Shown here piece after piece: positions 5,501 through 54,782 of a stretch of DNA of 64,000 bases (position 1 is its first letter; each line of letters starts with the position of its first letter). A program made the translations under genes and the position numbers. Below the pieces are notes generated by a model that did no database searches, was not told the origin of the DNA, and saw nothing but the letters and a program-made list of their open reading frames with translations. Origin of the DNA: a virus. The stretch covers positions 1 to 64,000 of IMG/VR virus record IMGVR_UViG_3300020205_000565; one strand, 5' to 3'.

Positions 5501-8268
5501 GGTAGTCGAGAAGTAATACTTTTTATCTCATCAAGAATTTCTTTTTGCTTTTCGTAAAAAGAATCTTTGATTTTGATTCTAGTATTCTGCATAATCCATT
5601 TCTCACGTAGACGATTGAATTGAGGGCTACCCTTTTCAAATTTTCTGTCAATAAGAAACTGCTCGTGGGCAGCTAAAGAATTAATAAACAAATCAGGTAA
5701 TAACTCCTCTTTATATAGCTCACGAGATACATTTCTAAATTCTCTTAAGCGTTCTGCTACTTCAAGATCAGCTACTCTTTTTAATTCACCACTAGGTAAG
5801 TAGTTAGAATGTAATTGACGATACTCTCTCCATAGCATATCTAATTCCTCAGTAGCATCCAATCTTTCCATAGTGGTTTGATTAGACATACCCGTTGTGA
5901 TATTCTGAATCTTTGCAAGTACTTCATTTCTTGCGGCTTCTGCTCTAGCTCCTACCTCATCATTCTCCCCTTTACGAAAAACTTCATGACGAGCATAGTA
6001 CTCTTTAGTAAACTCGGTGTGGAAGTATTCTCTTTCAAACTTTTGTTTTGCTAACTTAAGTTTTAATACTTCATCTGTGTTACCACTTGCTACAGCTTGT
6101 TCTTCGGCTAGGCGAATTTCATTTCGCATTCTATCTAAGTCCTCTCTGTATCCTTTAAAAGGATTAAGTAAGGTGTTAACATCTTTGCTTTCGTATATAC
6201 CAGTCTCTTTATTTTTACCACCTTTCTTATCTAAGAAGGTAGCTCTTCTACCGAATGCTGCGGGATTAGATTGGTTATAGCCGGCCGCTTCTAGTAAAGG
6301 CTTTACTTCAGTTAGGAATGCATTACCTTTCTGTTGAGCAGAAGTAAATACATCTGTCATCTTGTTTTTAACAAACGTTGCAAAACCAAATACTACAGGA
6401 TCCTGGTTATATATAAACCCTTCTAAGAAAGAGTTCAAAGCATGAGCATCTCCTAGACGACCCAGCATTAAGTATTCAATCTTTTCTGGAGTTAAGTAAG
6501 CTCCTTCTTTATAGCTTATAGTTTTAAGTCTTTCGTATACTTCTTTCTCGGAAGTAGAAAGAGCTTCTCCCTTATCTACTCTTTCTTTTAATCTTAGGAA
6601 ATTTCTTAGAGCATCTCCGCTAAGCCCCCAATAATCTTTTTGACGTAATTCAACTATAGTAGGAGATGCTCCTCTCTTTTTTAAATCGGTAATAAGATCA
6701 TTATATCTCTGGTCGATTCTTTCCTGCATTGGTGCTAACGTCTCTTTAATAAGAGAAGATGTTCCTGCAAAATATACCTTACTTGTAAGATTACGCGCAG
6801 TCTTAATCTCGCTATCAAGGGAGCCTAATAGTTCGTAGATAGGGTTACCGGTAGTGATTTCTCCAGCAACTTTGGCATCATCTAATTTCTGCTGGAAGTC
6901 ACCTAAGAAATTCTCCCAATAGTTTATAATGTTATTATAGTAGAATACTTTAGCTACGTTTCCTTGAGAGTCGGTATCTTTTACTAAACGAACAAGCTCC
7001 GTATTTAAACGGCGAATCATATACTTAGTACGCAGTAAGCTATTTATAAATGCTTCAGTATGCTTTCTTGCAAATTCAACATCTCTTTTTAGCTTACTCA
7101 TTTCGTTAGTAAGAGTAGCCGAGATGTCTTGGTAAGGTGCTAGGTTTTTGTAGATCTCATCTAAGTCAGACTTATCAAATGCATCTTTTAATAATTGCTT
7201 CATCCCCTCATAGTCCTTATTGTTCTCCAATAGATTAATTTGTTTCTTAATCATTGTAAAGAATAAGTTCGTACTTCTCTGAAGATCATTATCATTAAAT
7301 GCTTTTAATGCATTTACGTAATCCGTTACTTCGCTTGTATAAGCAGCCACATCTTCTTGGCTTACTCCTTCTAGGTTTATGTCAAACTGTTCCAGTACTA
7401 ACATGTTACCTAGATCGGCCAGTGTTGTATTCTGATCTAAGTTTTCTACTTTAACTTTTTCTACGGTCTCACCAAATACTTTTCTTAGTATCTGACGTAA
7501 TGCAAAAAGGAAGTTCTTAATAAACTTATTAAATGCTGAATCCTTATTAGCTACAGCCTGGTCTGTCAATGACATTACCAATGCTTCTTCCAATATAATA
7601 GGATCATTCTCAGTTAGTGTAGGGTACTGATCTTTAGCTAGTTGTAATAAAGTTTGTCCTGCCGCAGTACTTGTAAGTTCTGTAGCAAGTTTATTAAACA
7701 ATGTAGGATTGCTTATTCGTATAGCTCTTATAAGAGGGTGAGCAAATTCGTGAAGAACTGTTTTCTCTGTTACCAATTCAGGTATCATATAAACAGTTCC
7801 TCCTAGGAAGAATGCGGGTTGACCTTTCCACTGGTTAACATTCTTTGTTAGCTCGGCCGCTTCTTGCGGTGTAATAAACTGATAAGGTACATTAAGATTA
7901 GAGCTAAGGTTCATAGCTAAAACGCTTACTGTAGCTGCAGCTTTTAGATTAGACTGAGATTGTGTATCAAGTTGTATAGGATTCTTTAGGACCTGATACT
8001 CCGGGAATGCATTCATTACATCTCCGAAACCAGCATATAGATCTGGCATAATTGCTTGTCTTCCTTCAGTATTCCATACATCCATATTATCCATTAGAGT
8101 TTTAAACTCCTCATTAGTAGGTACAGCAGGTTCTGCTCCAATAGGAAGATTTTTATTCTTCTGCATGAAAGCCCGAAGAACTTCCGTAGAAGCTCTTGGA
8201 CCTAAGCCTATCTGCTTAGCGTATGCTGTTAGTTCGTCTAATGAATTCGGTAATGGACAAGCGCTCAT
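2515..8268 (-). CDS. Giant internal virion/ejection protein with N-terminal zincin (HEFAH); RNAP-cluster protein
   Basis: 1917 aa; HExxH at 7738-7752 with downstream EEA; mostly helical; hydrophobic segment near the C-terminus; directly downstream of the vRNAP as in crAss-like phages; only Cys is residue 4. Confidence 0.8.
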   Translation of the reverse strand: MSACPLPNSLDELTAYAKQIGLGPRASTEVLRAFMQKNKNLPIGAEPAVPTNEEFKTLMDNMDVWNTEGRQAIMPDLYAGFGDVMNAFPEYQVLKNPIQLDTQSQSNLKAAATVSVLAMNLSSNLNVPYQFITPQEAAELTKNVNQWKGQPAFFLGGTVYMIPELVTEKTVLHEFAHPLIRAIRISNPTLFNKLATELTSTAAGQTLLQLAKDQYPTLTENDPIILEEALVMSLTDQAVANKDSAFNKFIKNFLFALRQILRKVFGETVEKVKVENLDQNTTLADLGNMLVLEQFDINLEGVSQEDVAAYTSEVTDYVNALKAFNDNDLQRSTNLFFTMIKKQINLLENNKDYEGMKQLLKDAFDKSDLDEIYKNLAPYQDISATLTNEMSKLKRDVEFARKHTEAFINSLLRTKYMIRRLNTELVRLVKDTDSQGNVAKVFYYNNIINYWENFLGDFQQKLDDAKVAGEITTGNPIYELLGSLDSEIKTARNLTSKVYFAGTSSLIKETLAPMQERIDQRYNDLITDLKKRGASPTIVELRQKDYWGLSGDALRNFLRLKERVDKGEALSTSEKEVYERLKTISYKEGAYLTPEKIEYLMLGRLGDAHALNSFLEGFIYNQDPVVFGFATFVKNKMTDVFTSAQQKGNAFLTEVKPLLEAAGYNQSNPAAFGRRATFLDKKGGKNKETGIYESKDVNTLLNPFKGYREDLDRMRNEIRLAEEQAVASGNTDEVLKLKLAKQKFEREYFHTEFTKEYYARHEVFRKGENDEVGARAEAARNEVLAKIQNITTGMSNQTTMERLDATEELDMLWREYRQLHSNYLPSGELKRVADLEVAERLREFRNVSRELYKEELLPDLFINSLAAHEQFLIDRKFEKGSPQFNRLREKWIMQNTRIKIKDSFYEKQKEILDEIKSITSRLPKDSTVEADISTLYEKLSQLMSPYRDDDMQPEATAMDIRNIAEIKRTEQLLELAKKNIAKASGLTANEHEILSNYFARLKNGEDVTPAERMDANDLLIKKSKNELNTADKKRLYELWEDLAELQTSIPTDYYVDTINNLMSYVDLEEMQERFKFKDIDKTNAHQILNEDFLNFLDEQSEEVAEWFRTNHIMSRARDKEGNEYMKIQRVKSWSVTRPKSAEYLETHEFKNSDGEPEVLPSIPNMTYYERIVKDQYVNKEVTMLEALEMGDPTLANKDNKGNWLPKLDAPDDRYVNQQYFDVAKNDKALHAAIIALSKWHLQFQEGNPDPSKLYLDVPRFLRSGYESKMNMFTVEGKVENPVSSWWKRVKAFWSGGEGDDYDRGYNFTTQQDMIKGDMFDDQFAGVPINGLSDIQANEVSLDLTYGIMRYMISAEKQRALIAMNPMARALQTVLADPANVVRQVKGISKDMLDNFSLTGMFEKGTKLVSKGEKSVRQKAIDNFVEREFEGKLNKGVIGQDSDNMWVHKMADQIMGASAFGYFAMDIPSALKNSFGLRIQSLIESAGGKYFNHASYAQGTAFSNKVSWEISLEIYKFGPKSHNTQLVEIFDAYQGRFQDKFVEHGSRSVTKDALGGLSWMTSFRKWTELNSTLSIFGAMMHHEKSVTQTINGVTKKIAYIDAWETVDGQIRLKEGIDPEWGIGGSKFKAFKNRVQGVVNNLAGSFAKFDYAEADRYVAFRFAIAFKRWFLRMFMNRLQHRGSIRKGTVRARYDAAVGDTALGFHLEALSAFGRIIKTRGEYANFLSDTEKSAMLKTIMDVAYVVAFTMAISMLFGFDDKDPRKFAKLRERSGPLPFLGVSDNEDPFNMSGWLTNHALYMTMQLKNESMQWLPIPGYGADNYIDMLSMESVSMNNTWDNYKKIIVGLTQHAGHNLFGTDDSKAYFDQRQGPYSWMQKEGENWYAGSKVLTYFFRSIGLSGKTLSPDMAITNWVKGQNWR

Positions 8269-8279
8269 CTTTAATTATT

Positions 8280-11200
8280 TTAACATTTTTTATTTTGCTC
8301 AATGATCTCATCATCTGTAATAGGCTGTCCTTCTTGGACAACAGCTCTTCCTTGAGGAAGTAATAAGTAATGAGGATTGATGTACCCAAAGTTACGATAT
8401 AATTGTTCTGATAGATACAAGAATGTTTGCGGCGCAGTCCCTTTTAAAGTAGGTCTGCTAATAGTCGGAGCATTCTCTACGTATCCGATCATGTACTGAC
8501 CGTAACCAAAGTCGTCAAATACTAAGTACTTCTGGGGACCAGGTTCAGCAAGATATTCTTTAATATCTTTAATCGCTTCGTCGATCATCTCTTTATTATT
8601 ATCTAAAGTTTCATCGGTTAATGCATCAGACATATTAATTTTATCTGAACCTACCTTGGTAGGGGAAGGTCCAACCTTAGTAGAAAGACCAAAACCATTA
8701 TCACCTAATGCTCTCCATACGCTATTTGTTCCAGCAGTATTTCCTTTTAGATTTAAGAAGTCATTAAATATCATTAAAGCATTCGGGTAATCCTGTCTAA
8801 TGATTCGAGCAGTCTCTTCAGTAAGAACTCCTTTTCCAGCAGTACCAGAAACTTTATCTAAAGCATATCTAAAAGTTCTAAGTCCTGTAACATTATCTTC
8901 TAGGATAGACAGAAGCTTTGAGGATGCAATATCTTCCTCGGTCTTATAGAGTTTACCAGTTTCAGATGGTACTAATGTTTTATTATCGAAATCATTATTA
9001 AAGTCTATAGAAGGTGTTACTCCTTCTGCTTTATTTGTAAAGGCATAGGCAATATTTGTAGCTCTAGAAAGCGCAACATACTTCATTTGATTTCTTTCTT
9101 CGGCGTCCTTAGAAATATCAATAGTGTCTAGATCTACGAATATGTTTGTATAAGTAGAACCTTGAGACTTGTGAATAGTATGAGCATATCCATAGTCAAG
9201 AGTTTTCTTTAGGACTGTTCTAAGTTTACCTGTTTTAGGATCAACCTTATCTCCTTGTACTTTTCTATTTAAAGCGAAGGAGTTCATAAAATCGTACCAG
9301 TGTTTAAACAAAGAACGGTTTTTATTACCGAGTGCTGCTAATGCCTCACTTTGGCGACCTAGTTCTTTAAACTGCTCCTCACTATTACTGTTATCAAGTA
9401 TGAATACTTCTACCGGTTTAATTTTAGAATCGGATATATCCTGAAGAGTAATATTATATCCTGACATTACCATTGGTTGTAAATTTAAACCAGCATCTCT
9501 TAATGCTTTTTCTCCAACGTTTTTACTTTCAACATATTCAACATTAGTTACTACATAATCGACAGAGTTATTAATTGAATAAACACCTTGTCTATTTTTA
9601 TTATAGTTATCATACCCCATTAAGATTTCTCCTACAACGTATGGTTCAGAATAACCAAGACCTTTACGTATAACTTCATTAAGTATAGTAACTCTTTCAT
9701 TAGTATAGGTTATTGCTCTAACAAAGTTTCTATTGGTTTTAAAACTATCTGATTGAAAAGCTTTTACCACATCTTTAGCAAATTGCTTCCCTGAATCAGT
9801 AAATACTATTCCTTGATTACCAATAATTTCTGACTTGTATCCAAATGTTGGAAATTCAGACTTCATGTTATTACGAATAGAATCCAAGATTGGTCCTAAA
9901 GGATTATCTCCGGCCTGACGTTCAACTTGAGTAAGCTCAGACTTATTAGTTACCTCTTTAAATACAGGAGAATTTTCTTTTTCTAGCGTTACAGTATTAC
10001 CATCTTCTTCTGAAACAGGTTTAAGCTGTGCGGGGTCACCGATAAATATTACTTGTTGTTGATTCTTTTCAGCTCTTTGTTTTATAAAGTCAAATAAGTC
10101 TGGTCCAATAAAAGATGACTCGTCTATAATAAGAACGTCAGTAGGAAATGCTCCATCAGCAACAATGCTCATATTAAGTTTTTCTAGATCAACTTGCGTT
10201 GGATCTATATTAGGAGCTAGCGCTAAAACATTATGAATTGTTTTAGTCTGTCTACTAATAGCATTGGATAACACTCCTTTAGCTTTATGAGTAGTAGCAG
10301 TAACATCGTTACTGATGTTTCTTTTTCTTAGATATTCAAGTAAGATTTTAGTAATACTTGTTTTACCCGTACCAGCATATCCCATAAGGGTATACATGTT
10401 ATCGGTAATATCTTTAGATGTTGTATCAAAGCCCTTGCTTATAAATTCTGCAATGTTATTAAGAGCTTCTACCTGCTGATCGTTTGGTGTAAAGGATATA
10501 CCTAACTGTGTTAAGTTAATGGGTATACCTCCTACCATAACGTTTCTAGCTTCAGCTTCTTCAGCAGCTCTCTCTGCTTCAGCAGCAGCTTCAATAGATC
10601 TTTGAAGAGCCTCTGGATCTAGATTGTATATTACATTTTCAGGTATGTTACCCTCGGCATCTGCTATTTTTGCAAGTAGCGGATTAGTAGCCCAGTTTTT
10701 AATTTTCTTACTTAGATAGTTACTTCTTAAGTACTGACTAGTAACGAATGTATTCTGGTAATCTCTGAGCACTTGCTCTATCTCATCATATTTTAGTTCC
10801 TCTGTAAACTCCTTATATGGTTTTTCAAATAGGGCCATAGACATTTCTGTCGGTACTGCACGAACCATAGAGAATGTACTTCTTGTATCTGTACCAGACT
10901 GTAGTATAGAGAACAAACCAAACTTTTGGAATAGGTTAGATATTCTCTCGTTCTCTACAGGATCTGTTGACTTGATAACACTAGGATTTGCTAAGTCTTG
11001 TAAGTTGTTATGGTAGATGTTTAGATCATCTGCCGTATACAAAGTATTAGCAAACTTTAAGTTAGTAAGAGTAGTAGTTGTATAAGGTTTAGTTACCGCT
11101 TCTAGGTTTGAGAGTACTGAATACTTTTCAAACAAGTCCGGGTTACTTTCTTTAAGCTGCATGATCTGACGACCATACGCCTTCTCCCCATAGAATAAAT

Positions 11201-14200
11201 GACCATGAAGATTTAGATTACCTAATGCTTTATCTCTAAGTACAGACTCATAAGCTTTATACTCAGGTGTGTATTTCTCATCAGCCTGGTTCTTATAGTG
11301 AGCTAGATATTTTTTATAGTCAGGAGTGGTACTGATATTCTCTTTAGAATTCTCAGGATAGCTTCTTAATACTTCTCTCTCGAATACGAACTTGGTAAAC
11401 AATTGTTTACCTGTTACAGGATCGTACATATCAAATACAATGTTATCTACCGGCGCAGCAAACTGCCATGCGCTTTGTTTACTGTATTGCTTAGTAGCAA
11501 ATAAACTATTGATCTGATTTCTATCTACGTATAAGGTACCTTCTTTTACTCTAGCAGCAGCTTTTAAATTCTTTACATCTTCTATCTCAACTTCTACATC
11601 CTTACCTTGGTATGACTTAGTAGCGGGATTGAACTTATAATAAGATCTTTGGAATAAGAAACTCATAAGATCGTTTCTCAACGTTCTCTGTAATGTTTCG
11701 TCATCCATACCTGTAGCTTTTTTAATACCGAATGAAAGATTCTTACCGTCTCCTTGTCTACGGAATATATTCTGAACCATGTTATTTACCTGTTCGCTAT
11801 CACGTAGAGGAAACAAATTATGATATCTGTCGATAATAAAGTCTTGAATCTTAAATGCACTGATAGGCGACTCTTCTGAGATCCTTCTGATTGACTCTGC
11901 ACTAATACCATTTGTAAGATTATCCATTTTCTCTAGCTTCATACGAGCATCAAGCAGTGTGCTAGTCTTATCGTTATCAAACTTAAGAGCCTGTGTAAGC
12001 TGTGTAATCTGACCGGCCATTTCTTGAATCATAATAAACTGAGAGAATACAGCTCTATCTAATTCGTTGTAACCTTCTCCTTCTTTTTTCTTAAGATTCT
12101 TTTTAAGCTCTTCTTTTGAATAATCCTCAAGCTTAGGAGCAGACTCATTTAATAGTTCCCAGATAAGAGTCTTATCATAAATAGGATTGTCTCCACGTAG
12201 TCTCTTATTTAAATATTTTGAAGGATCATTTGTAAAGCCGTTCTCTTTATTAAACAGTATTTCATTACGAGCTTCTATTCTGTGGAATAATCCTACATCC
12301 TCCTGACCAATAGGTACAGCAAACTTACTCTTAAGTAAGCGTTGTTTGCCTAAGAATTCCTTGATGATCGGTTGCGATACAAAATAGATTGCTTGGTCAA
12401 TAGGTACACCGGCCTGAATCATAAATAACAATGAAGGTATAACCTCCTTGTTACCTTGAATATCAAAGATCCATGCATCTTTTGCAACGTCTACCGCTCC
12501 ATTAATCATTTGGTTAATGATATCAGCAACACGATTACTTAAGTCAGCAGAGTAAGCAGATGATAAAGATATATTACCGTCAATATTATTATGCGGTAAG
12601 TATAAAGTTTGGTCTGCATATACCTCAGTACCATCCTCCTTATAGGTAAGGATACGATCTTTGCTCATTACTAATCCAGTACGTGCAAACAAAGTATTAA
12701 ATGTATTTGCTACTGCAATTATACCAAGTACCGCTTTACCAATACTATTAGACTGATGCTTATATAAGTTACGGCCTAGCTCAAATATTTCTGTTGGTGA
12801 GCGCTTACCTCCAGGAGCTTCTCCTCTATCTATGAAAGCCATGTCATTAGCAATACCTTTAAGGATGTCAATACCGTTAGGAGTAATAAGTTTAATTCTA
12901 TTCTCCTGCATTGAAAGAATACCTACGCTGTCTTTAATCAAAGCGTTTTCTATACCCTTAACTGATTTTCTACTCTTGTCTAGTTTAACAGTGATCTCTT
13001 CCTCTGATAGATTATCTACTAATTCTAAGATCATAACCTCTTCATCAGTGAATGCTTCTTCGTTATCTAGGTCAGCATACTTTTCTTCTAACTCGTTAAT
13101 CTCTTCTCTAGTTACATCGCGGCCGAACTCTTCGCTAATAGCTTTGATACTCTTATCAGAAATCTTTTTATACTTAGCTGAAATGTTAGGCATCATTGTA
13201 AACATCTTATCGATGTCAAAGTCACCACCTGATTTAGCTACAATCTCTGCTGGAAGAATTACAATGTTACCTGCTTCTTCTGGTAAGAATTCAAATACCT
13301 CCATGAATTCCATAGAGTTAAGACCCTGTACTGGAATACGTGCAGCTACTAGTGTAACAAATGATCTGTTTTTATCTACAGGTTCTATTTCAGAAACTCC
13401 TGTAAAGTTTTTAGCACCGCCTGCTAAGTAAGCTTGGTATTGAGCTTCTGCGTCCTCTACTTTATCTACAACTATAATGTCCAGGTTTGCTCCGTCCTTT
13501 GACTTAACTGTATCATGAGTATAGTAGTCTCCAAGAATTTTAATTCCGTGATACTCTCCACCTTTAACACGTTCTCCATCTTTAGTGTTAGGAGTAAGCT
13601 GAGACATTAATTCAGGGGTCAACTCTGATTTAAGCACAAACAGTTTAGTGTCGCCTTTAGTATTATCTAGTTTAGCAAAAGCTTTACTGTATATTTCCTG
13701 GTTAGGATTAATTGGTTTATCTAACCAGTTTTCATCTTTAATTAATCTATTAAGAGCTTGAATAGGAGTGATACCAGTCTTAGCTAATGCTAATACATCA
13801 GGATGATATAATAATTTTTTGAATCCGCCTTGAAGAGCAATCTTAATCTTCATTGCTGCAGTAGAGCCATCCGCTTTCTTACGGTAGAATGTTAATCCAT
13901 TGGTACCATAGTTCTGAATCTCTTCTTCTGTAGCGTTACGCATATCGTTATTAGCGTTTTCAAATCCTACTCCAGATACTTGAACTAATGTTTCTCCAGT
14001 AATCTTTTGGTTGATCAAACGCTTTTGTATAACGGCAACTAAAAGCTTCTCTATCTTATCAGCAGAAAAGGATAGGTCTAAGCTTTGCTTAGGTTCTTTA
14101 GTAATACCATCATAATCTATAAAGTCAATCTCGTGATCCGATAAGTCTTGTCTTGTAAGTTCTTTCTTAACAAAGTCAAGAAGGCTCTTCATGTCAGATC

Positions 14201-17200: not shown

Positions 17201-20200
17201 CTAGTCTGTTCTCTCTAACTGTACCGTCAGGCTTGTAGGCATATAGACCACGAATAGTGTATAGAAGAATAGAAGATGCTTTCTCCTTACCTGACATCTC
17301 GTTACCAGATTTAGATTCGAACTCGTTCTTGATAGCTAATTTACTATCATCGACCTTATCCATCTCCGTCAGCTGTCGGTCATCGAACTCCATAAACTTA
17401 CTAGTCTCCATGTGGTACTTCATCACCCCTGTTGGCTTAAGAACCTCATCGGGCTTACCAAAGTGTTTTACCGCATAGGCTAGTGTATCTAGTTCATAGT
17501 CTATATCTTGTGTATCTAGTCCTTTAGCTTCCATGTCAGCTCTATCTAGATATACGTTCTCTAACTGTTTAGTCAGTTCTTGTAATACGTATTTGTATAC
17601 TGTAATCCGTCCTTTTACTGTACGGATAGCAGCAGTAGTAAATACATTAGTCTTACCTCCGTTTAGTTTAGATATCGCCTCAACGAATAATGAATCTACA
17701 GTAGACCCTATTAATTGAGATGTCTCATAGTCTAGTTTAGATTTGCCGATTTTATCCTGTGGAGTAGTTGTAGTTACTACCTTATTCAAAGTAGTAAATA
17801 CTCTATTAGCCTGGTCAAATGTAAACTGGTTTAGATCTCCTACTCTTAGTTTCTCGTACAGCTCGTTAGTATAGCTGTTATTGTTACCATTAGTAATAAC
17901 GTCATCAGCATTAGTCTTACCGAACAATGACTTTAAGAATTCAAATATCTTTTGGAAGATGTTCTTCTTAACAGGAGTCTTGTCTAGTACTTTCTTTCCT
18001 TTGCCGAGCATATACTCGCGGAAGTCTTCTGCTAAGTATTCTTCTAGCTGTTCTTCCGTAGCCTCTTTAAAAGTTACAGTACTTCCGTCAAATGCCACAA
18101 ACGATCCTTTGTTGGATCTTGTCTCGTCATATAGTTTCTCTCTTTCTACACTAGTCAAGAACATCTGTGTAAAGCCATGCCATGCTTCGTGGTATAGATC
18201 AGAGTAATCCGATCCTTTAAACAGTGTAATACCGTTTACATCCCAGCGAGCAATACCGTTTTTAGTAGCAGTATTGATAGCATTGAACATTACCTTAAAT
18301 GGTATATGTTCCTTAAGCGGACTGTTCTCGTACCAGGTTTTAGCTAAGGCAATCTGTTCTCTAGTTGCTTTAAGATTACCCTGAATACCTAACTTGTTCT
18401 TACCGTTCTTATTGATGAAGTCATCATCGTTCATCAAGTCATCTAATGCGCTGCTATCAGCACTTGATCTTCCCCTACGGAATATCTGTTGAGCCTCTAT
18501 CTTCTGTACAACCTCTTCTGCTTTTTGCTCTACTGGCGTAATATCAGTAGGAGTTTTAGTTCCCTCTAAAATAGATAGTTCTGTATCATAGTTTACGGAT
18601 TTACCTAATTGATAATAGAACGGACTCTGTATAAGAAATGAATCAACAACATCTTTTAATTCTGATTCACTTATATTACTCTTATCTAACTTACCTATTT
18701 CTTTTAGCGTACGATCAATGAGACTTAAAGTCATATCATCTTTACCTACTGGTGTATACACAGTAGATGCTTTTTTAAGTACGGCCTCAATTGTATTAAT
18801 TGTAGAAAGTGGAGTACCCTTAGCAAGAAGTTCTTTAAATGCCTTACGAATATTCTTTCCTCTAACACCTATAAGTGCAGTAATACCACGAAAGTCAACT
18901 TGCAGCTCGCCTGCTGCTACAGCTTCTTGTCTCTCCGCTCTTTGTTTTATTAAACTTTCATCATTTTTTGTTGCACCTTCTATTTGAGATTTAAATGCCT
19001 TAACTGCCTCAGATCCTGGTAGATTAACTTCTTTTGCAGCTTTAGGAGCTTGCTTAGTCTTGCCAAAAGTTTTTTCGTATACTTTACGTATAGCTCTTGA
19101 AGCAGCCTCCTCTTTTTCTTTTCCCTTATATTTTCCAGTATCTGTGGTAGTACCCCACTTAGTTACTTTACCACTAGCGTCTTTTTCTAATGGCATAGGG
19201 TATGATTCAATATCTCTTGATCCTACGCCTGCAAAGTTCTTAGTAAGGGTTGGAACTTCAGTATTTGTAAATTTAGTTCCGTCCCATTTTGTCCAGCTCT
19301 CACTTGTAATATCCCAAACATAAACAGGTTTGTTTAACTTAATACCGAGTTGTACTGCCGTATTAGTTCCGCCTGTTACAGCATCTCCTTTTTTATTTAA
19401 AGTAGCAACCGCAAATACAGAATCTGAATTAGCAACTTGGTAGTAGTTTCTTACTTGTAAGTTTCCTTCAGTAGTGTTTGGATATCTTTTACCTAATAAC
19501 TTTTCTACCTCATCTCTTGCAGCTTCCATTTGTTCTTCTGTAAGAACAGTAGCTTGCACACCGGCAGCTTTAAGTTGTTTAGATAAGGTAGTATTAGCTT
19601 TTTCTCTATAGTGTCTATGTTGTATAACACCGAATTCTCTACCAACTAAATCCCAAAAAGTATCTCCGCCGTATGCTCCTCCAGAATGATTAACAAACTC
19701 TTCTGGTTTATTTTCTGTAGTAGGTTTAGTTTCTTTTAAAGCAGCTAGTTCTGCATTGTATTTAGAATCTAACCATTCTTCAGCAGCCTTGTATGGATCA
19801 GGATATTCATTGATATCAAATGATTTTTGTTCTCCGTGATTCTTAATTATATACGAGTCCTGTGCAATTGGCTTTACTGCGTCTAACTCATTATAATTAA
19901 AAGGTCTTACATAAGTAACAGTAACAGCAGTTACTTGATCTGTTTCATTATCTACCCTCTCTCGTAAGCTAATTAAATTTTTTCTTCTTTCTATATCAGC
20001 TACTCTAGGATCTGTAGGTTTAGTTCCTTGTAAACGGCTAATTATTATATCATACTTATCATAAATAACTTTATAGATACCATATAAAACACCTGGCATG
20101 TTACCCTGCTTTTCACCATAGGTATCAGGATAGTCATCTATATTAGGTATTGCTTTACGAAGATCTATTTGTTCTTGCGCTCTAAGCTTAGTTACTTTTT

Positions 20201-21938
20201 CATCGTTAGTTTCTTCAATCTCTTCCTCTATATTTTCCTCATCTAGTAATACCTTGTCGCCATTGCTAGGATCAATAAGTAGAGTAAAGTATGGGTTATA
20301 TCTTTTAAGTTCCCCATCTTCGTCTAACTCCACATTCATGTTTGTGTTCTGCTCCAAGTAAGTCATGTAAGGAACAGAGTCTATATTGAATGTACCATTA
20401 GGATTTCTAGAAAACACTGTAACATTTTTGTTGCTGTTAGCAAGTGGTAATGCTATAATACTCTTTCTATTAAATCCGTCAGGTTGTTTTAAGAAGACAC
20501 TCTTTAAAGTTTCGGCTGCGTCGCTTGCTGAAAGCATGAGGGGTTGACCCTCTAACTTAACATATATTGCTCCGCTACTTTTATCTAGACCATACTGGAT
20601 ATCTTTAACTGAGTTAAGTATGTATGTAGCAAGTATGTCAACCTTCTCTTTGTTGCTTAGAGGTTGGCCGTCAGTTTTATTAACGGATTTCGTTAACATT
20701 TCTGCTAGGTTTGTTGCAACTTCTTCTGATATATTTTTAGGCGCTACTAATACAGGGTACTTGGATAAAGCTGGAGTAACGTATACTCCTGAAAAAGCTC
20801 CCGGCTTTAATTTATCCTTACTATAGAAAGCAAAGCTTAACGGTTCATTTTTAAAAATTCTAGTTTGAAACGGAACCATTTCAGGATTCTTATCTACTAT
20901 AGCACCGTAGCTTCCTCCAGCAATAGAATACATGATGCTATTACCTTCTCTTGCTTTAATGTAATCATAAGCTTTCGCTAGTTGCTCAAATCCACCTCTT
21001 AGGTATTCTCTTGCTTCTTCAAGAGACATTCCTAAGTTCTTAGCTACCTCTGCAGCAGTTTGGGTATTGTTAACGTTATCTACATCGAATAACTTGTTAG
21101 GCCCTCTCTTAGGTAAGAATCGAGTATTGTAATAAGCTAAAGTTCCATTTTTGGTAACTTCTGCCTTATCGTTAAATCGAAGCTCGTTACCATTTTTGTC
21201 AACTAATACGTAGACAAAAGCATTATTATAGTCTTCGATTATATAGTCTTGATCAACACCAGATTCAATAACTTCTTTTACATTAGGGAAGGTATCGTTA
21301 ATAGCGATTTTATTATATCGCATCATCTTAACAAAGATTCCTCCAACTACTCCAGGGTATTCAGTTCCTTTTGCTAATATAGCTTTAGTAATTGTGCTAT
21401 ATATTTTCATTCTAGGATCTCTTGGTGAGCCGGGCTTACCAGATAATATCTCCTGCATACTTGTTGACACAGGATCAAATGGTTTTCTTGTCTCCTGATA
21501 GATCGTAGAATTAGCAGCATTTTTTTTTGCTACGTATTCTTGCTGTTGTTCTTTCTCAAGATCTTCTTTTACTTCAGCAAGGTTCTTAGCTGGATTAACA
21601 GTAACGCCTAAGTAATCTACTACGACTTGGAAACCTTTCTTATCGTCTCCTGCTAGTCTAGCTGTCTTATATAATTCAGCAATATCTAATCCTTGCTCAG
21701 GTAAGTTCTCAAGAGTACTATCTACTCCTAAAAGCTGTTTGATGAAAGGAAGGGATACTCTAGCATAGTCCAAAGCTAAGTTCTGGTTCTGCGTTGCAGT
21801 ATTAACTTGATTGTAGAGACCAGATAGATAATCTTTGAGATCAAAGTTATTCTTGTTATCTACATAAGTCAAAAGATCCTTCGCGATTTTAGTACGAAGG
21901 ATCCTTAATTGTTTATTACTTAGGGTACAGTTAATCAT
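8280..21938 (-). CDS. Virion RNA polymerase (crAss-like double-psi-barrel type), multidomain: SLOG-like, zincin, RNAP, SF1B helicase, C-terminal alpha/beta domain
   Basis: 4552 aa; GGDFDIDK catalytic loop (13209-13223) preceded by RIPVQG; EGDGQG, KKMQYWG and HKFSL motifs; the DFDID variant is characteristic of the phi14:2 gp66-type vRNAP. Confidence 0.92.
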   Translation of the reverse strand: MINCTLSNKQLRILRTKIAKDLLTYVDNKNNFDLKDYLSGLYNQVNTATQNQNLALDYARVSLPFIKQLLGVDSTLENLPEQGLDIAELYKTARLAGDDKKGFQVVVDYLGVTVNPAKNLAEVKEDLEKEQQQEYVAKKNAANSTIYQETRKPFDPVSTSMQEILSGKPGSPRDPRMKIYSTITKAILAKGTEYPGVVGGIFVKMMRYNKIAINDTFPNVKEVIESGVDQDYIIEDYNNAFVYVLVDKNGNELRFNDKAEVTKNGTLAYYNTRFLPKRGPNKLFDVDNVNNTQTAAEVAKNLGMSLEEAREYLRGGFEQLAKAYDYIKAREGNSIMYSIAGGSYGAIVDKNPEMVPFQTRIFKNEPLSFAFYSKDKLKPGAFSGVYVTPALSKYPVLVAPKNISEEVATNLAEMLTKSVNKTDGQPLSNKEKVDILATYILNSVKDIQYGLDKSSGAIYVKLEGQPLMLSASDAAETLKSVFLKQPDGFNRKSIIALPLANSNKNVTVFSRNPNGTFNIDSVPYMTYLEQNTNMNVELDEDGELKRYNPYFTLLIDPSNGDKVLLDEENIEEEIEETNDEKVTKLRAQEQIDLRKAIPNIDDYPDTYGEKQGNMPGVLYGIYKVIYDKYDIIISRLQGTKPTDPRVADIERRKNLISLRERVDNETDQVTAVTVTYVRPFNYNELDAVKPIAQDSYIIKNHGEQKSFDINEYPDPYKAAEEWLDSKYNAELAALKETKPTTENKPEEFVNHSGGAYGGDTFWDLVGREFGVIQHRHYREKANTTLSKQLKAAGVQATVLTEEQMEAARDEVEKLLGKRYPNTTEGNLQVRNYYQVANSDSVFAVATLNKKGDAVTGGTNTAVQLGIKLNKPVYVWDITSESWTKWDGTKFTNTEVPTLTKNFAGVGSRDIESYPMPLEKDASGKVTKWGTTTDTGKYKGKEKEEAASRAIRKVYEKTFGKTKQAPKAAKEVNLPGSEAVKAFKSQIEGATKNDESLIKQRAERQEAVAAGELQVDFRGITALIGVRGKNIRKAFKELLAKGTPLSTINTIEAVLKKASTVYTPVGKDDMTLSLIDRTLKEIGKLDKSNISESELKDVVDSFLIQSPFYYQLGKSVNYDTELSILEGTKTPTDITPVEQKAEEVVQKIEAQQIFRRGRSSADSSALDDLMNDDDFINKNGKNKLGIQGNLKATREQIALAKTWYENSPLKEHIPFKVMFNAINTATKNGIARWDVNGITLFKGSDYSDLYHEAWHGFTQMFLTSVEREKLYDETRSNKGSFVAFDGSTVTFKEATEEQLEEYLAEDFREYMLGKGKKVLDKTPVKKNIFQKIFEFLKSLFGKTNADDVITNGNNNSYTNELYEKLRVGDLNQFTFDQANRVFTTLNKVVTTTTPQDKIGKSKLDYETSQLIGSTVDSLFVEAISKLNGGKTNVFTTAAIRTVKGRITVYKYVLQELTKQLENVYLDRADMEAKGLDTQDIDYELDTLAYAVKHFGKPDEVLKPTGVMKYHMETSKFMEFDDRQLTEMDKVDDSKLAIKNEFESKSGNEMSGKEKASSILLYTIRGLYAYKPDGTVRENRLGFPQLMDPNAAWNRIYNITDGSRNIQDVYNRLAEAAVDYPAIGQFLAKVGLPSNMETSSQELWTEITAILTMKRIPLMALRASFSTQMIEAVDPETGEVLMEGNKPIKEKVTTFKVTPTRAGGEYSKVGAKWDNHFAVAAPGKYITVGADNVNTLNIQAVAENFNRTLSINNLNTVFEFMEAIGMPLENNATVRKALSNKNNPTFKAIYDVHTTILYGIYPYNNKYAGANPIIIRKPSDIVKEYKVAIDDFKVSNKLSGVSIKYNTIQNFHLTWSDDFSDTTVSNAEGENQYEKSLRGTLMNMVDNINAAETLTDLTQEGVSNADDLSMNHLSTSRNPFMKASKIMRRLFDENGKKIVYESSYGDVVRAQIELLNMSGTSVEITNVKGLVNESGIASSNADETTKILQDFYMMMLYGVSEATRHSDKSTTYLYRLIATDPKGKALKHLIDLASFTQRSNSEAPSAGRIQFTKDLFEHLGAEYERIQKLKDGDPAGLATVGDKTYAEAGSEFVIFDKILDETTKTKIKKARTSSLSEPVLTKEDLEKYLNDPKRVELKNSIEQQIGNYLSGQVEEFEQSLADMGFYNNPQLADQVLNKMGVRSPQALTTERREQLLKDMAEAYVANSWVHTLETTLVFYGDPALFKDEADFFKRNSGLGATGGIPRTDIYMQEYINAKLAASSEAARLGFKPKKFGKTMTSAVMQDAKTQSVYYEEYLKEAIEFETDRLTKLKASKEQIAQTIAAITKRFSEYAGMTEGDGQGWINFDAYRALLMSLKKWSPVQESIYNKIVKGEEVTEDVLKFFPVKKMQYWGALKTEGLPVLGFHKFSLMPLIPNIIKGKNLDQLQAKMLEKGIDYALLKSGSKINSLTKNGTVDKFYNDSKSNTNKTLAINEEGFEFTPNEIFMDYFKDQLEVHDHFNEKVTFSTQLRKLIEDGLMENGVPTDWKTFDFADPWERIQAWEAASKEEKMSSKNYKRLIRYEANLEALVQLKKDKLVKEIGSDMKSLLDFVKKELTRQDLSDHEIDFIDYDGITKEPKQSLDLSFSADKIEKLLVAVIQKRLINQKITGETLVQVSGVGFENANNDMRNATEEEIQNYGTNGLTFYRKKADGSTAAMKIKIALQGGFKKLLYHPDVLALAKTGITPIQALNRLIKDENWLDKPINPNQEIYSKAFAKLDNTKGDTKLFVLKSELTPELMSQLTPNTKDGERVKGGEYHGIKILGDYYTHDTVKSKDGANLDIIVVDKVEDAEAQYQAYLAGGAKNFTGVSEIEPVDKNRSFVTLVAARIPVQGLNSMEFMEVFEFLPEEAGNIVILPAEIVAKSGGDFDIDKMFTMMPNISAKYKKISDKSIKAISEEFGRDVTREEINELEEKYADLDNEEAFTDEEVMILELVDNLSEEEITVKLDKSRKSVKGIENALIKDSVGILSMQENRIKLITPNGIDILKGIANDMAFIDRGEAPGGKRSPTEIFELGRNLYKHQSNSIGKAVLGIIAVANTFNTLFARTGLVMSKDRILTYKEDGTEVYADQTLYLPHNNIDGNISLSSAYSADLSNRVADIINQMINGAVDVAKDAWIFDIQGNKEVIPSLLFMIQAGVPIDQAIYFVSQPIIKEFLGKQRLLKSKFAVPIGQEDVGLFHRIEARNEILFNKENGFTNDPSKYLNKRLRGDNPIYDKTLIWELLNESAPKLEDYSKEELKKNLKKKEGEGYNELDRAVFSQFIMIQEMAGQITQLTQALKFDNDKTSTLLDARMKLEKMDNLTNGISAESIRRISEESPISAFKIQDFIIDRYHNLFPLRDSEQVNNMVQNIFRRQGDGKNLSFGIKKATGMDDETLQRTLRNDLMSFLFQRSYYKFNPATKSYQGKDVEVEIEDVKNLKAAARVKEGTLYVDRNQINSLFATKQYSKQSAWQFAAPVDNIVFDMYDPVTGKQLFTKFVFEREVLRSYPENSKENISTTPDYKKYLAHYKNQADEKYTPEYKAYESVLRDKALGNLNLHGHLFYGEKAYGRQIMQLKESNPDLFEKYSVLSNLEAVTKPYTTTTLTNLKFANTLYTADDLNIYHNNLQDLANPSVIKSTDPVENERISNLFQKFGLFSILQSGTDTRSTFSMVRAVPTEMSMALFEKPYKEFTEELKYDEIEQVLRDYQNTFVTSQYLRSNYLSKKIKNWATNPLLAKIADAEGNIPENVIYNLDPEALQRSIEAAAEAERAAEEAEARNVMVGGIPINLTQLGISFTPNDQQVEALNNIAEFISKGFDTTSKDITDNMYTLMGYAGTGKTSITKILLEYLRKRNISNDVTATTHKAKGVLSNAISRQTKTIHNVLALAPNIDPTQVDLEKLNMSIVADGAFPTDVLIIDESSFIGPDLFDFIKQRAEKNQQQVIFIGDPAQLKPVSEEDGNTVTLEKENSPVFKEVTNKSELTQVERQAGDNPLGPILDSIRNNMKSEFPTFGYKSEIIGNQGIVFTDSGKQFAKDVVKAFQSDSFKTNRNFVRAITYTNERVTILNEVIRKGLGYSEPYVVGEILMGYDNYNKNRQGVYSINNSVDYVVTNVEYVESKNVGEKALRDAGLNLQPMVMSGYNITLQDISDSKIKPVEVFILDNSNSEEQFKELGRQSEALAALGNKNRSLFKHWYDFMNSFALNRKVQGDKVDPKTGKLRTVLKKTLDYGYAHTIHKSQGSTYTNIFVDLDTIDISKDAEERNQMKYVALSRATNIAYAFTNKAEGVTPSIDFNNDFDNKTLVPSETGKLYKTEEDIASSKLLSILEDNVTGLRTFRYALDKVSGTAGKGVLTEETARIIRQDYPNALMIFNDFLNLKGNTAGTNSVWRALGDNGFGLSTKVGPSPTKVGSDKINMSDALTDETLDNNKEMIDEAIKDIKEYLAEPGPQKYLVFDDFGYGQYMIGYVENAPTISRPTLKGTAPQTFLYLSEQLYRNFGYINPHYLLLPQGRAVVQEGQPITDDEIIEQNKKC
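9030..10490 (-). other. RecD/Dda-like SF1B helicase domain inside the vRNAP
   Basis: Q motif (NDQQ), Walker A GYAGTGKT (10359-10382), TTHKA, Walker B IIDESS, GDPAQLKPV, LTQVERQ, YTNERV, TIHKSQGSTY, YVALSRA. Confidence 0.93.
17920..18260 (-). other. Zincin-like metallopeptidase domain inside the vRNAP
   Basis: LYHEAWH (HExxH at 18177-18191), EEYLAEDF, then amphipathic FQKIFEFLKSLFG. Confidence 0.85.
19065..19700 (-). other. SLOG/DprA-like (Rossmannoid nucleotide-binding) domain inside the vRNAP
   Basis: NHSGGAYGGD, RNYYQV, SDSVFAV, GGTNTAV, KPVYVWD and FAGVGSR match the SLOG-superfamily pattern. Confidence 0.75.
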
Positions 21939-24900
21939 TATTCGCAGCCAAATGAGTTAGTAAATTCATCATCTATATCTTCGGCAGAATTGTTCTTCGC
22001 CTTTTCCATATCTTCTTTGATAACATCGGTATTGTTGATGTCTGTTGCTGTCTCCATATTAGAATTGGAGTTCTGTTTTTCATCTGCCGTTATGGTAACA
22101 GTTGGTTCAAGCTTCTCAGTACCAGCACGATACATGTACTCGGCACCATTTTCGAATTCGTCATTTGTGATATTCATAACTTCGTCTGAATTAAGTCGTT
22201 TGAATTTAACGGTCCCATTAGTAGTGTTCTTTCCGAGAATTTGTACAATACCGCTTCGGCCGTACGTTTTTCTATCTTTCATTACCACTAAATCGTTCTT
22301 CTCTACTTCTTCAAAGGTAGGAATTTTTGAGGACAATTCCTGCATTTTTCTGTCCATAAGTTCTTTAAATTCTTCAGCAGTCATGTTCTCATCCTCAAGA
22401 ACTAAAGAACTAGTTTCAGTATTGATGTCATCAAGTTCCTCCATAGATTTAGCATTCTCAATGCTCTCTCTTACTTTGCCTTTGTACTTCTCTTTAAGAG
22501 TTGTAGCTTTAGCTTTTCCTGTAAGTACATCTACAATAGGGGAATCAATCTCTAGGATCTGGATGCTTCTTTTAACCTTTGTTTTCTTAGCGGCTGTCTC
22601 GTATGCTCGTATTCTAGCTACGGCATCTTTACCGGCTTTATCAACAATAACATTATCATTAGTGTGGATAAGTACCATATCTGCCTTCTGAGCAAATCTA
22701 CCAATAGTTGTAACTACAGTATCTCCCGCGTTAACAGCGGCTTCCATTTTAGCTAAAGCATCGTCGTAAATCTTTTCGGCTAATTTCTTATCCTTCACGA
22801 ACATCTTATACATGACTGTATCTATCTTCTCGCCCTTAAGATCAACGCCGTTATCGGCCATAGCTTCTGCTAGTAAGGTGTCTCCGTTAATAACGCCTTC
22901 TTTCAGGCTATCTACATCATCTACGCTACTTGCTAAAGTGGTGTATATTAAAAGACCTTTAAACTTATCCTTAAGTTTAGACTTAGGTTTTCCACCCTTC
23001 TTATGTAGTTCTATAGCCGCAAGTGCCTCAGCTTCAGTACTTAATGCAATTCCTATAATCTCTCCATCTTTTGTTACATCTATAATACCATTATCATAAG
23101 TAGTGACTTCATAACCGTCTACCATTTTCTTAGATACTACGTTAGACGTACTCGTACTTGTAGGAGTACCTGTGAGATTATTTCTTTTATTATAACCTTC
23201 GATAACCTTTTTAGCTCTTTCACTTTGTTTAATAAACTTTGTAATCGCGCTATCTGGGATAATTGGTTTATTATTAGTAATCTGCTCTTGGTTAAATATC
23301 TTAAGTTCTGCACGTAATATCGTTTGCAGATCTTTCGGCATATCGTTGAATGGTGTATCTACAGTAATTGCAGCAGCCCCAGTATCAGTTGGAGTAATTC
23401 CTGTGTCATCCGTGCTACCTATAATAGGATTGTTTTCAACCTTATTAGAAATAATACCAATGGCCTCAGTTAAAGCTGTATTAGAAGAACTGTTAACAAA
23501 TCCTAATATCTTAGCTATGAATTGTCTGATTCCATCTAAGACCTCCTGCCACATATTCTTGTTTGTATTCTTATAAGGAATAGCTTCTAGTTCCATCTGA
23601 GCAACCGGATTGGTTAATGCTTCAGATAAAAAGGCTTGTGGACTAGACAACATAAATCTAAACATTGCCTGCAGATTAGGATCCTTTATAGAATCTTTAT
23701 TTGCTTCATAATATTCTCTTGCCGCATCCATAAGATTTGTAGTAGCCTTACTAAACTTGTCGTCTAATAATCCTTCATCTACAACTTTTTGAATCATCGG
23801 ATTTAATACAGAGTATTCTAAAGATACCTGAGCTTCGCCATAGTCCTTTGAAGAATATCTTAAATCTATCGTTATACCCGCAGTTTTAGAATACGTAAAT
23901 GCTTTAGATGCAGTAGAAGCAATTTCTATTTGATCTGTATCTTTAACCGTAGTCAGCATTCGTCGTGCTAATGCTTTGGCCCCAGGCTTACTAAACTTAT
24001 TCTTAATGATATAGTTTAGTAAGTCTTTAGTTGCCACCATTTGACTCTTAAGCTTAGGATCTAATCCTAGAGCTTTCATAAAGTCTTTGTATGTTCTAGT
24101 ATCGTCTTTTTCTGTAAAGTCGTAAGGTCTTTGGAAAGACTCTGCACCTTCCTCAGCAATTTGTTTTCCTGCTAACGTAAATCCATTAGCCTCTTCAAAC
24201 TCTTCTAAGAATTCTAAGATTTCTCTATATTTAAGACTACTTGGTTCAATAGCTTTTTTACTACCAGCATCTATAAACACAGAAGGAATACTTTCTCCCT
24301 TTACAAGTTTATCAATTTCCTCTGGCATAAAGAATACATTGAACTTTGTATAGATCTCACTAAGAAGTTTGTTAGTTTGCATACGAGCACTATAAGTGTT
24401 CCAAGCTTCCTCTAACTTCTTAGCTGCAATTTCTTGTGCAGCTTTAGCAGCAGCACTAAACTTTTTAGACGCTTCTGCAAAATACATAGGATCGTTAAGT
24501 AAGTTAACGTTCATACTAGCTGCTCTTGCATCTACTCCTAATTCTAAATAATCTTCTAAGTATGAGAATACTCTATCTACATCTGTAGATATAATAGGTT
24601 GGCCACCGTCTTCTGAATTCTCAGCAAGTACTTTTAAATACTCTTCTAGGTCAGCCTTAAGTTCTTTTTTAAAATAGTCTACACTACGAGAAGCTGGATC
24701 CGATCCTTCAAAGTCTATTTCTAGCTGTTGAGCACTCGTTCCTATCCCTTTTAAAGTCTTAGCGTTTATACTAACAACTTTAGTTTTTACTTCCCCGTTC
24801 TTATCAGTATACTGGATCGTTACTTTGGTATTTGTCTTTTTAATTACTTTACCAGAAATAGGTAATCCAGATTTTGGTTGGTAACTAACTGTTGAACCTA

Positions 24901-30500: not shown

Positions 30501-30864
30501 TTTTCTTTCTAGCGTTACCATACTGCTTAGTATAAGATAAGTCAGCTCTAAAATAATCGTTATCGATAAGAGGTTGAAATAACTTATTAGCTTTCTGGAC
30601 GTTCTCAGGTAGAGATAAGTCTACTCCTGATAAACGTTTAATTTCATTGTCTATCCCTGTAAAGAATTCGTTTCTTCTTTGTACGTTAGGTTCTCTAGTT
30701 AGCTCAGAATTAAGTAGTTGACCATAAGCCGCGCTAATTTTAGCGTAGCCGGCATCGTACTGTCCTTGCTTGGTCTCTAGGGCCTTTTGAAAGAAGTTAA
30801 AGTCCGGCTGAAAAGGCTGGAGCTTAGGGATGTAATCTGTTATTCCTTGTATGTAGGTTGCCAT
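27571..30864 (-). CDS. Internal virion (cargo/ejection) protein
   Basis: 1097 aa; no Cys; helical N-terminal half; long Gly/Ala hydrophobic segment (GLLETIGGIGLTALSGAG...AAAGIAAGVTIG); lies between the cargo and RNAP clusters. Confidence 0.75.
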   Translation of the reverse strand: MATYIQGITDYIPKLQPFQPDFNFFQKALETKQGQYDAGYAKISAAYGQLLNSELTREPNVQRRNEFFTGIDNEIKRLSGVDLSLPENVQKANKLFQPLIDNDYFRADLSYTKQYGNARKKSQALRDNPDPKETEVKWWAEGDRGLEFQREDFAKSTDEQSLRFSAPRYVPFVNAAEKLYKFGKDNDINPETLTQTGMYNIVYANGEAAIPKLQDIFGSVVAGDPRIKDMFATQAYVDRKNAMKAGAEKYGGDELAAEKEYLKTRVDEINAYYRERNTVTTKSNDNAKSTKKVLENKIRTEGVDPDLDKDLIALYQNSIKDEQVMATVDQVNKEVLSQTDAINFDEQDIEGLRYRVDNAMSYFLMDNLVNETARSYANAKMKILKFEADPFAVNAQEHAFRVAENAQKFGYDLKLAELDVMLAMIKENGGGLPGQAPFTTGGEYSGYTKESGTGGGNVAGDIAVMDQNASAQSSVSQAGRIGTQTNAKAYLDLQNNRIDQAKTEEEKNMIRQQVNEDLGLYNEVVEKGYTYSQDAPTDWGQAGMGLLETIGGIGLTALSGAGEVFSFGAATPVAAAGIAAGVTIGAKGGSDLYYGLAGDQTITVPDKVKSQSGLVKQTADGKYELISFDQSIGITDPNSGDYWQKVNDRIASRTGTIGITDKSNPAAQYALKVINDNNSRIGTVNKVLSEMQAVTVENHNKLIPVLSNESGVDPYNAGQFFTADKSRIKTQEEYVSDFLATYKDNEQYYPKSKAGGYQRADTYAIPEEERLADMREDAIDHYEDLQEAYETLSKNPDAYVGITTFNPNLMSSAEGVSALVGEALSAKFDPVFYNELPFKDAMSLFAKDLGPAATSDQFRNQKGAKFMFGNGFNITRDVYEDTENSKTAAASVYFAMQAASLNYGGKNDTEAAAKRPSGKWTYYNVAANDGNKVAATFTFNPAFVEAHKGSGDSPGITSELATRMSKGELPEVTFFIDSDKAESAPFRSMQSTMEEFLYERGKLEVSDPNGGSIKFSRDALGGISLNGSIPSINANGETVNTPVFGTVYNENINSVYNTWKGTISNVGQANMQMKGDLSNASTNKIKDVNAFQPQPQQ

Positions 30865-30896
30865 ATCTTATTGTAAAAATACGAAAAAAAATCTTT

Positions 30897-30913
30897 AAAG
30901 TTTAATAAACTTT
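30897..30913. promoter_or_regulatory. Perfect 8-bp inverted repeat AAAGTTTA-A-TAAACTTT, possible operator
   Basis: Intergenic, just upstream of the promoter-like motif of the 1097-aa gene; AT-rich, so a chance match is possible. Confidence 0.3.
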
Positions 30914-30928
30914 TTAAGTTTAAATTTA

Positions 30929-33808: not shown

Positions 33809-33810
33809 AT

Positions 33811-37686: not shown

Positions 37687-37726
37687 AATGTGCTAAGATA
37701 AGCATTATACTATAAGATACTGATTT

Positions 37727-51852: not shown

Positions 51853-51854
51853 GA

Positions 51855-53473: not shown

Positions 53474-53475
53474 AA

Positions 53476-54063: not shown

Positions 54064-54072
54064 ACGCCTTAG

Positions 54073-54086
54073 TACAATTTACGAAA
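54073..54086 (-). promoter_or_regulatory. Putative late promoter element TTTCGTAAATTGTA
   Basis: Member of a repeated intergenic motif (TTTnGTAnnTTATA) just upstream of start codons; follows a terminator. Confidence 0.5.
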
Positions 54087-54137
54087 TTTATTCTAGCTTT
54101 AAAAGTAATACATCATTGAATACTAAACAAATATAGT

Positions 54138-54170: not shown

Positions 54171-54203
54171 CTTGTTTAGTCACGCTAAACCAACAAACGT
54201 GGA

Positions 54204-54770: not shown

Positions 54771-54782
54771 ATTTTTAGTTTA

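Follow-up and report, generated by a model that had tools for sequence, protein, structure and literature searches.

Why should three giant phage proteins, 8,346 residues in all, contain just four cysteines (Cys), every one of them at an end that faces a neighbouring protein of the set? The question is raised by a 64,000-nucleotide (nt) stretch of viral DNA, positions 1 to 64,000 of IMG/VR record IMGVR_UViG_3300020205_000565 (hereafter the window), the opening 64 kb of a contig of 82,029 bp that encodes a crassvirus major capsid protein (PF23898 Crass_capsid, E = 6.4e-31). Crassviruses are the most abundant viruses of the human gut. The large genes of the window all lie on the minus strand, and three of them encode protein A (21938..27571, 1877 amino acids (aa), 207.5 kDa), protein B (8280..21938, 4552 aa, 512.3 kDa) and protein C (2515..8268, 1917 aa, 219.1 kDa), the first, middle and last members of a putative chain with a summed mass of 939 kDa. 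The stop codon of A overlaps the start of B (TAATG), and C begins 11 nt past the stop of B. A first-pass annotation had proposed that these proteins are linked head-to-tail by disulfides in gene order. From a comparison of related loci we regard it as practically certain that the terminal Cys come in pairs and are under selection in the polymerase cargo block of crassviruses. We estimate the probability that head-to-tail disulfides would join consecutive cargo proteins in the particle at about 0.65.

Terminal cysteines of the cargo proteins

The four Cys are Cys1876 of A, 2 residues from the C-terminus (codon 21944..21946; tail DDEFTNSFGCE), Cys4 of B (21927..21929; head MINCTL), Cys4552 of B, which is its last residue (8283..8285; tail DDEIIEQNKKC), and Cys4 of C (8257..8259; head MSACPL), with all codons on the minus strand. 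The N-terminus of A and the C-terminus of C, the two outer ends of the chain, carry none. Positions, codon coordinates, terminal sequences and the bare outer ends are all exactly as the first-pass annotation had given them, and its count by eye had overlooked no internal Cys. Because the starts of B and C are each the first possible start codon following an in-frame stop, the head Cys cannot sit deeper in the protein.

The seven consecutive giant open reading frames (ORFs) at 2515-46507 together contain these 4 Cys in 14,619 residues, whereas the neighbouring virion genes encode 149 Cys among 5,523 residues (2.7%). A chance origin of the pattern is excluded. The depletion, far below the level of the phage's own virion genes, places the cargo with the Cys-depleted ejection proteins, and the earlier statement that ejected virion proteins are free of Cys agrees with what is known of N4 gp50 and DEV gp71-73 (PMC11445570). 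The structural ORFs (46507-63635) have 2.7% Cys, with single ORFs reaching 6.8%, against the nearly Cys-free cargo at 2515-46507. The composition of the encoded proteins suggests a disulfide-stapled particle surrounding Cys-free cargo.

Junctions across related loci

We scanned IMG/VR and obtained 75 loci, each with up to 10 kb of flank on either side, in which ORFs were called and their ends tabulated. Wherever the ends can be read in these loci, A has a tail Cys only, B has both a head and a tail Cys, and C has a head Cys only. The low-Cys giant ORFs of the related loci comprise 525,589 residues, and 244 of their 289 Cys lie at most 12 residues from an end; the first N-terminus and the last C-terminus of a chain never carry one. 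The filtered, non-redundant set of junctions joining low-Cys giant ORFs comprises 116 with Cys on both sides, 65 with Cys on neither and no discordant case (Fisher p = 8e-51, a value that overstates independence because the loci are mutually related). The stronger argument is provided by the independent split and fusion events described below. An unfiltered recount yielded 117 junctions with Cys on both sides, 81 with Cys on neither and 6 that are mismatched. All six mismatches come from three loci (L021, L062 and L074) in which a small Cys-containing ORF lies between a tail-Cys B and a head-Cys C; these insertions may be selfish genes. They encode 118-229 aa (19302-19655 in L021, 11711-13050 in L062 and 8017-8520 in L074), and the terminal Cys of B and C are kept on either side of them.

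The head Cys occupies position 3 (49 cases), 4 (43), 5 (17) or 6 (7), and the tail Cys is found at -1 to -4 in 105 of the 116 cases. Many junctions overlap or fall within 20 nt, and the rule that Cys stands at every facing end and nowhere else is undisturbed by intergenic gaps of 0.3-1.8 kb. It holds as well in phi14:2, crAss001, cr85_1, cr50_1, cr108_1 and cr11_1. In crAss001, IAS virus and cr85_1 the A-type gene is located on the strand opposite B and C, and the rule persists; what counts is the order of the modules and not the adjacency of the genes, and the words "in gene order" of the original proposal have to be amended in this sense.

Gene fission and fusion

The comparative test proposed with the original annotation, namely whether Cys pairs arise with the splitting of genes and disappear with their fusion, was passed cleanly. 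In five loci (L033, L045, L050, L063 and L075) an extra protein of 304-655 aa, here called X, is encoded between B and C. Each X has a head Cys, a tail Cys and no others, and only a head Cys is present in the protein that follows. The extra proteins of L033 and L045 match the N-terminal part of C, that of L050 matches residues 3401-3851 of the B protein of L030, and that of L063 is a mix of N-terminal parts of C and C-terminal parts of B. Unsplit counterparts have no Cys at the place of the split: the C protein of L052 has its Cys only at position 3, and the B protein of L030 only at 3 and 4029.

Fusions show the converse. In L056 and L070 A is fused to B, and both the N-terminus of this B and the upstream protein are devoid of Cys. 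In L056 the gene upstream is of the 1097-aa cargo protein family, and B residues 222-732 match the A protein of another locus. In crAss001, gp47 ends 184 residues past a zincin motif homologous to the motif at residue 1250 of B, and the split between gp47 and gp50 (Cys2339 | Cys5) maps to about residue 1430 of the window B, where no Cys is present. The cr50_1 and cr108_1 proteins are fused at this same place and have no Cys pair there. In cr11_1 (Intestiviridae) it is B and C that are fused; the tail Cys is on the zincin protein, the head Cys is on the fusion, and the far C-terminus is bare. In total, at least eight distinct states of splitting or fusion are represented without contradiction, with one possible exception at gp055/gp056 of IAS virus that is taken up below.

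Two internal residues, Cys3071 of cr50_1 and Cys2406 of cr108_1, were considered as relics of a fused junction and rejected, as mapping with hidden Markov models (HMMs) puts the junction elsewhere. The RNA polymerase ORF of cr108_1 is interrupted for about 290 nt in the catalytic region (L005, 21101-21392), with no Cys at either end; this looks like an intron or an annotation break and not like a true protein split.

Conservation in homologues

A database search returned 340 homologues of B, of which 120 were listed, with lengths of 2,530-4,881 aa and identities as low as about 30%. Conservation of the terminal Cys had been named in the annotation as a check, and in nearly all of the 120 listed proteins there is one Cys at position 3-6, a second at -1 to -9 and no other. 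When 42 diverse members are aligned, Cys4 of B is invariant and Cys4552 is at least 90% conserved. Cys4 of C is invariant in 53 homologues, and the homologues of A in 53 loci have a C-terminal Cys only. When the C-terminal 220 aa of B and the N-terminal 220 aa of C were aligned for 53 genomes, mean column identity was 12-14%, and no column other than that of the Cys was invariant or close to it.

One apparent B homologue without a tail Cys (P0015) was dismissed as an exception, since the protein is broken into pieces of 3699 and 361 aa and the 361-aa fragment keeps the tail Cys. The contig in question (L088, 8001-20355) has a 100% identical counterpart, L087, in which B is whole, and the break is either an assembly error or a fresh one. 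A search for shorter homologues retrieved mostly fragments at contig ends.

Comparison with known systems

The statement in the annotation that no description of such a mechanism exists was too strong, as one case has been published. The cryo-electron microscopy structure of cyanopodophage A4, also known as Anabaena phage A-4L, shows the pre-ejectosome proteins gp27 and gp26, with a C-terminal helix of the former inserted in the latter and fixed there by a disulfide between Cys1715 and Cys5 (PMC12002296). We checked the A4 genome and found that gp27 (1717 aa) has its sole Cys at 1715, and that gp26 (1114 aa), encoded by the next gene, has its sole Cys at 5. Pf-WMP3 and cyanophage PP, at about 24% identity, keep this pair at -2 and 5. 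A4 and the window thus share the layout of a sole Cys near the C-terminus of one ejection protein and near position 5 of the next. A4 differs in that it has one pair and not a chain of three to five proteins, and in that it has no RNA polymerase. Moreover, the A4 paper treats the bond as a local stabiliser and gives neither a rule nor a connection to gene fission and fusion (PMC12002296). HMM and BLAST searches detected no homology of the window families to A4 gp26-gp29, and no A4 chain was among the fold matches. In the cyanopodophages A-4L (L082), Pf-WMP3 (L092) and PP (L093), the only Cys of the peptidase ejection protein (gp28 or 27) are those of a CxxC situated some 20 residues before the C-terminus.

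Among cultured crassviruses, phi14:2 resembles the window with gp078-gp077-gp076 (g067-g066-g065 of Drobysheva et al.), where the Cys are at 1797 | 3 and 2179 | 3. So does crAss001 with gp47-gp50-gp49, which have a summed mass of 694 kDa and in which the Cys are at 2339 | 5 and 2404 | 5, plus one internal Cys. In both phages, compared with the window, the block is cut elsewhere, and the window B carries an extra helicase. The crAss001 virions contain gp47, gp49 and gp50 and many structural disulfides; the termini of the cargo are not discussed (PMC10172136). A preprint on the phi14:2 polymerase describes the three proteins as fused in some phages and does not mention Cys (10.1101/2020.03.07.982082).

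The ejection operon of Schitoviridae (N4 gp50-52, DEV gp71-73) is similar to the window in that a giant polymerase and its companions are purged of Cys. The lack of Cys in N4 gp50 and DEV gp71-73 has been attributed to passage through the oxidising periplasm (PMC11445570). In contrast to the window, the polymerase of these phages is one chain of 3,400-3,500 aa with an unrelated RNA polymerase fold, and no terminal Cys are kept. T7 ejects the core proteins gp14, gp15 and gp16, of which gp15 and gp16 are without Cys like the window cargo, but there are no facing terminal pairs, and gp14 (3729-4319, L094) has a single Cys at position 2. We found no description of the terminal-Cys rule in crassviruses in the literature.

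Structure prediction

AlphaFold gave confident models for the two terminal regions, the final 220 aa of B and the initial 220 aa of C, with mean pLDDT (predicted local distance difference test) values of 83.6 and 82.6, respectively. The B model ends in a helix (residues 210-219 of the 220) that reaches the final Cys4552, while the head Cys of C is modelled in an unstructured tail of 7 residues ahead of the first helix. This predicted layout of a C-terminal helix and an N-terminal tail resembles that of A4, and it is to be taken as a resemblance only. Co-folding of the two segments, with 53-row alignments for each, gave a score of 0.20 against a mark of 0.32, and this result counts neither way.

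Proposed mechanism and alternatives

In the mechanism that we propose, A, B and C would constitute an RNA-polymerase cargo block that is carried in the particle, delivered into the host and purged of Cys, with one Cys kept in a short flexible head (positions 3-6) or tail (last 1-10 residues) facing the next protein. In the assembled particle each tail Cys would bond to the next head Cys (A-S-S-B-S-S-C), and the disulfides would restore the covalent continuity of what is one fused polyprotein in other phages. For this the thiols would have to be oxidised to disulfides in crassvirus particles. The link could serve to package and deliver the proteins together in equal numbers, perhaps drawn through the tail as a linear thread, and they would then be released by the reductants of the host cytoplasm.

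The purpose is a separate matter from the bond. That the link is made for translocation of a thread with reductive release is a tentative idea, in which we place less than even confidence. The single 0.9-MDa thread, the fixed stoichiometry and the ordered ejection that the first-pass annotation proposed are likewise conjectural. By analogy with A4, stabilisation or equimolar co-packaging of a folded cargo complex would be equally compatible with the data. An elaborated form of the idea, redox-gated coupling, remains similarly speculative: the split polyprotein would travel as one covalent thread that ensures 1:1:1 packing and N-to-C passage through the tail, stays linked in the oxidising periplasm, and is freed, and perhaps switched on, by the reductants of the cytoplasm. 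If the thread reading were true, at least two unrelated podophage lineages would use a disulfide as a substitute for the peptide bond at splits of ejection genes.

Several points weigh against disulfides between the cargo proteins. For crassviruses we infer the bond from sequence, and A4 is an analogue and not a demonstrated homologue. Particles are assembled in the reducing cytoplasm and the gut crassviruses live in an anoxic setting, so that oxidation would have to wait until release or be promoted by proximity. Nor is the purge complete, as the gut members cr11_1, IAS virus and cr108_1 have several internal Cys. The heads and tails are short and, apart from the Cys, poorly conserved. Finally, in IAS virus (L083, 14129-23111) gp055 has a tail Cys while the annotated gp056 has no head Cys; ambiguous bases occur at this place. 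The IAS virus gp055 (837 aa) has Cys at 5, 31 and -4, and its gene overlaps the start of the RNA polymerase gene gp056.

If disulfides do form, which Cys would be joined? Counts alone demand only equal numbers of head and tail Cys, and in the window the heads of B and C are alike, as are the tails of A and B. Both facts would suit a non-consecutive arrangement in which B closes on itself (Cys4-Cys4552) and A bonds to C, or in which B forms polymers capped by A and C. Against this, chains of two proteins isolate the A-to-B pair in cr11_1 and the B-to-C pair in L056, L070, cr50_1 and cr108_1, which leaves only the consecutive partner, and each fission creates a pair at its two new ends. Tails also travel with the downstream head and not with the body that carries them. 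The close relatives L033 and L067 share a tail of the form GYPEV.D.T..SC, borne by X in the former and by B in the latter, and in both it precedes the head MSKCRLDIQN. Likewise, a C-terminal module of about 130 aa ending in ..ILK.IC or similar is found on B (L044, L072 and L037) or on X (L050 and L063), and it always precedes a C-type head M..CP[IN]K. All three lines favour consecutive pairing, and the A4 bond, too, joins consecutive proteins. We consider a non-consecutive arrangement quite unlikely; pairing of each C-terminal Cys with the N-terminal Cys of the next protein is strongly implied by the comparison of loci.

The thiols need not form a disulfide at all. A metal ion (Zn, Fe or Cu) could instead be coordinated by the two thiols of a junction, with or without help from carboxylates of the acidic tails, or one ion could be shared by the four thiols of two junctions, giving a tight non-covalent tether. 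Such a bridge would fit the parity and co-variation data equally well, would draw on tails that are often acidic (e.g. DDE) and would remain workable under reducing or anoxic conditions, as in the gut. We nevertheless think it unlikely, because each terminus has a single Cys, neither CxxC nor any other conserved ligand, including histidine, was found near the joining ends, and the sole solved example of this layout is a disulfide (PMC12002296). Each Cys would be an anchor or packaging tag if it bonded elsewhere, be it to another copy of its own protein, to a Cys-rich protein of the portal, capsid or tail, or to a modification such as a lipid. The structural proteins of the phage are indeed Cys-rich (2.7%) and the tails of crAss001 are disulfide-stapled (PMC10172136), but anchoring or homotypic pairing predicts no link between tail and head, yet among about 200 junctions none is one-sided besides the artefacts of inserted genes. 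Nor does anchoring agree with the bare first N-terminus and last C-terminus, and we rate it as very unlikely. A thiol chemistry that rejoins the chains, through thioester-based ligation or trans-splicing, or that cleaves them, has in its favour that a Cys near both new ends formally suits reactions of the native-chemical-ligation type and that fused and split forms interconvert in evolution. It is extremely improbable given that no intein domains or motifs were found, that the stretch beyond the tail Cys is just 0-9 residues long and the one ahead of the head Cys 2-5, and that mass spectrometry of crAss001 virions lists gp47, gp49 and gp50 separately (PMC10172136). Least credible, to the point of being negligible, is that the Cys codons arose by chance or as a by-product of a nucleotide-level junction signal, such as translational coupling or a mobile junction cassette. 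The overlap or closeness of many junctions would be in keeping with such a signal; the pattern nonetheless holds with A on the other strand and across the long gaps, the Cys offsets and flanks vary with only the Cys invariant, and the layout recurs in an unrelated phage family (A4, Pf-WMP3 and PP).

A head-to-tail link of the cargo proteins would bear on the problem of how about 1 MDa of protein is delivered through the narrow crassvirus tail. As a sequence rule, the restriction of Cys to the facing ends, each of which has one, predicts the physical partners of each cargo protein and their order, and these predictions extend to hundreds of uncultured phages. The rule would also explain how the cargo block can fuse and split freely in evolution. 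For annotation, it could serve as a marker for true protein ends and for chain membership among giant phage ORFs.

Modules of B and C

Residues 2863-3217 of B match chain A of PDB entry 6VR4, the phi14:2 gp66 virion RNA polymerase (E = 4.6e-24). The catalytic motif DFDID (residues 2906-2910; 13209..13223, minus strand) is invariant in the family: D2906, D2908 and D2910 of the catalytic DxDxD are unchanged in 42 homologues (GSDFDIDK). B does contain a two-barrel virion RNA polymerase of the Crassvirales type (phi14:2 gp66 family). Packaging of the polymerase in the virion is known for phi14:2 and crAss001 only (PMC10172136; 10.1101/2020.03.07.982082).

Three further modules were assigned to B. 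A DprA/SLOG-like stretch covers residues 747-884. A zincin motif, HEAWH (residues 1250-1254; 18177..18191, minus strand), is invariant in the alignment of B homologues and is homologous to one near the C-terminus of crAss001 gp47. A Dda/PIF1-like superfamily 1 (SF1) helicase domain is located at residues ~3780-4300 (9039..10601, minus strand). B is, as judged from these matches, a fusion of DprA/SLOG-like, zincin, RNA polymerase and helicase modules, and the label "RNAP" that the first-pass annotation gave it was right as regards the polymerase and incomplete as regards the other modules. The last 170 aa of B also have a weak match to DUF7831 (E = 0.0097, short of the cut-off).

C is homologous to phi14:2 gp076 and crAss001 gp49 and has a zincin motif of its own, HEFAH, at residue 173. 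A fold search of the two terminal domains (the end of B and the start of C) against the PDB returned nothing at E ≤ 0.001. Residues ~100-220 of C weakly resemble minimal zincins by fold, a match that is not significant.

Genomic setting

The muzzle protein (crAss_MUZ, PF25731, E = 4.4e-29) is encoded at 46507..51852 on the minus strand and has 18 Cys in 1781 aa. Its gene marks where the structural genes, whose products contain Cys, give way to the Cys-free cargo genes, and the order of muzzle, Cys-free cargo and RNA-polymerase block is the same as in crAss001. By megablast the region has no match among GenBank phages. Between the muzzle gene and A, four further giant ORFs of 1097, 959, 1291 and 2926 aa lie upstream of A (27571..46507, minus strand) with zero Cys; they are presumed to be ejected cargo outside the Cys-linked chain. 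Homologues of the 1097-aa protein in L015, L021 and L075 have an internal pair of Cys at about 128 and 134, which is absent from the window copy (27571-30864). The 2926-aa ORF (37727-46507) contains two HExxH motifs, at residues 133 and 1168.

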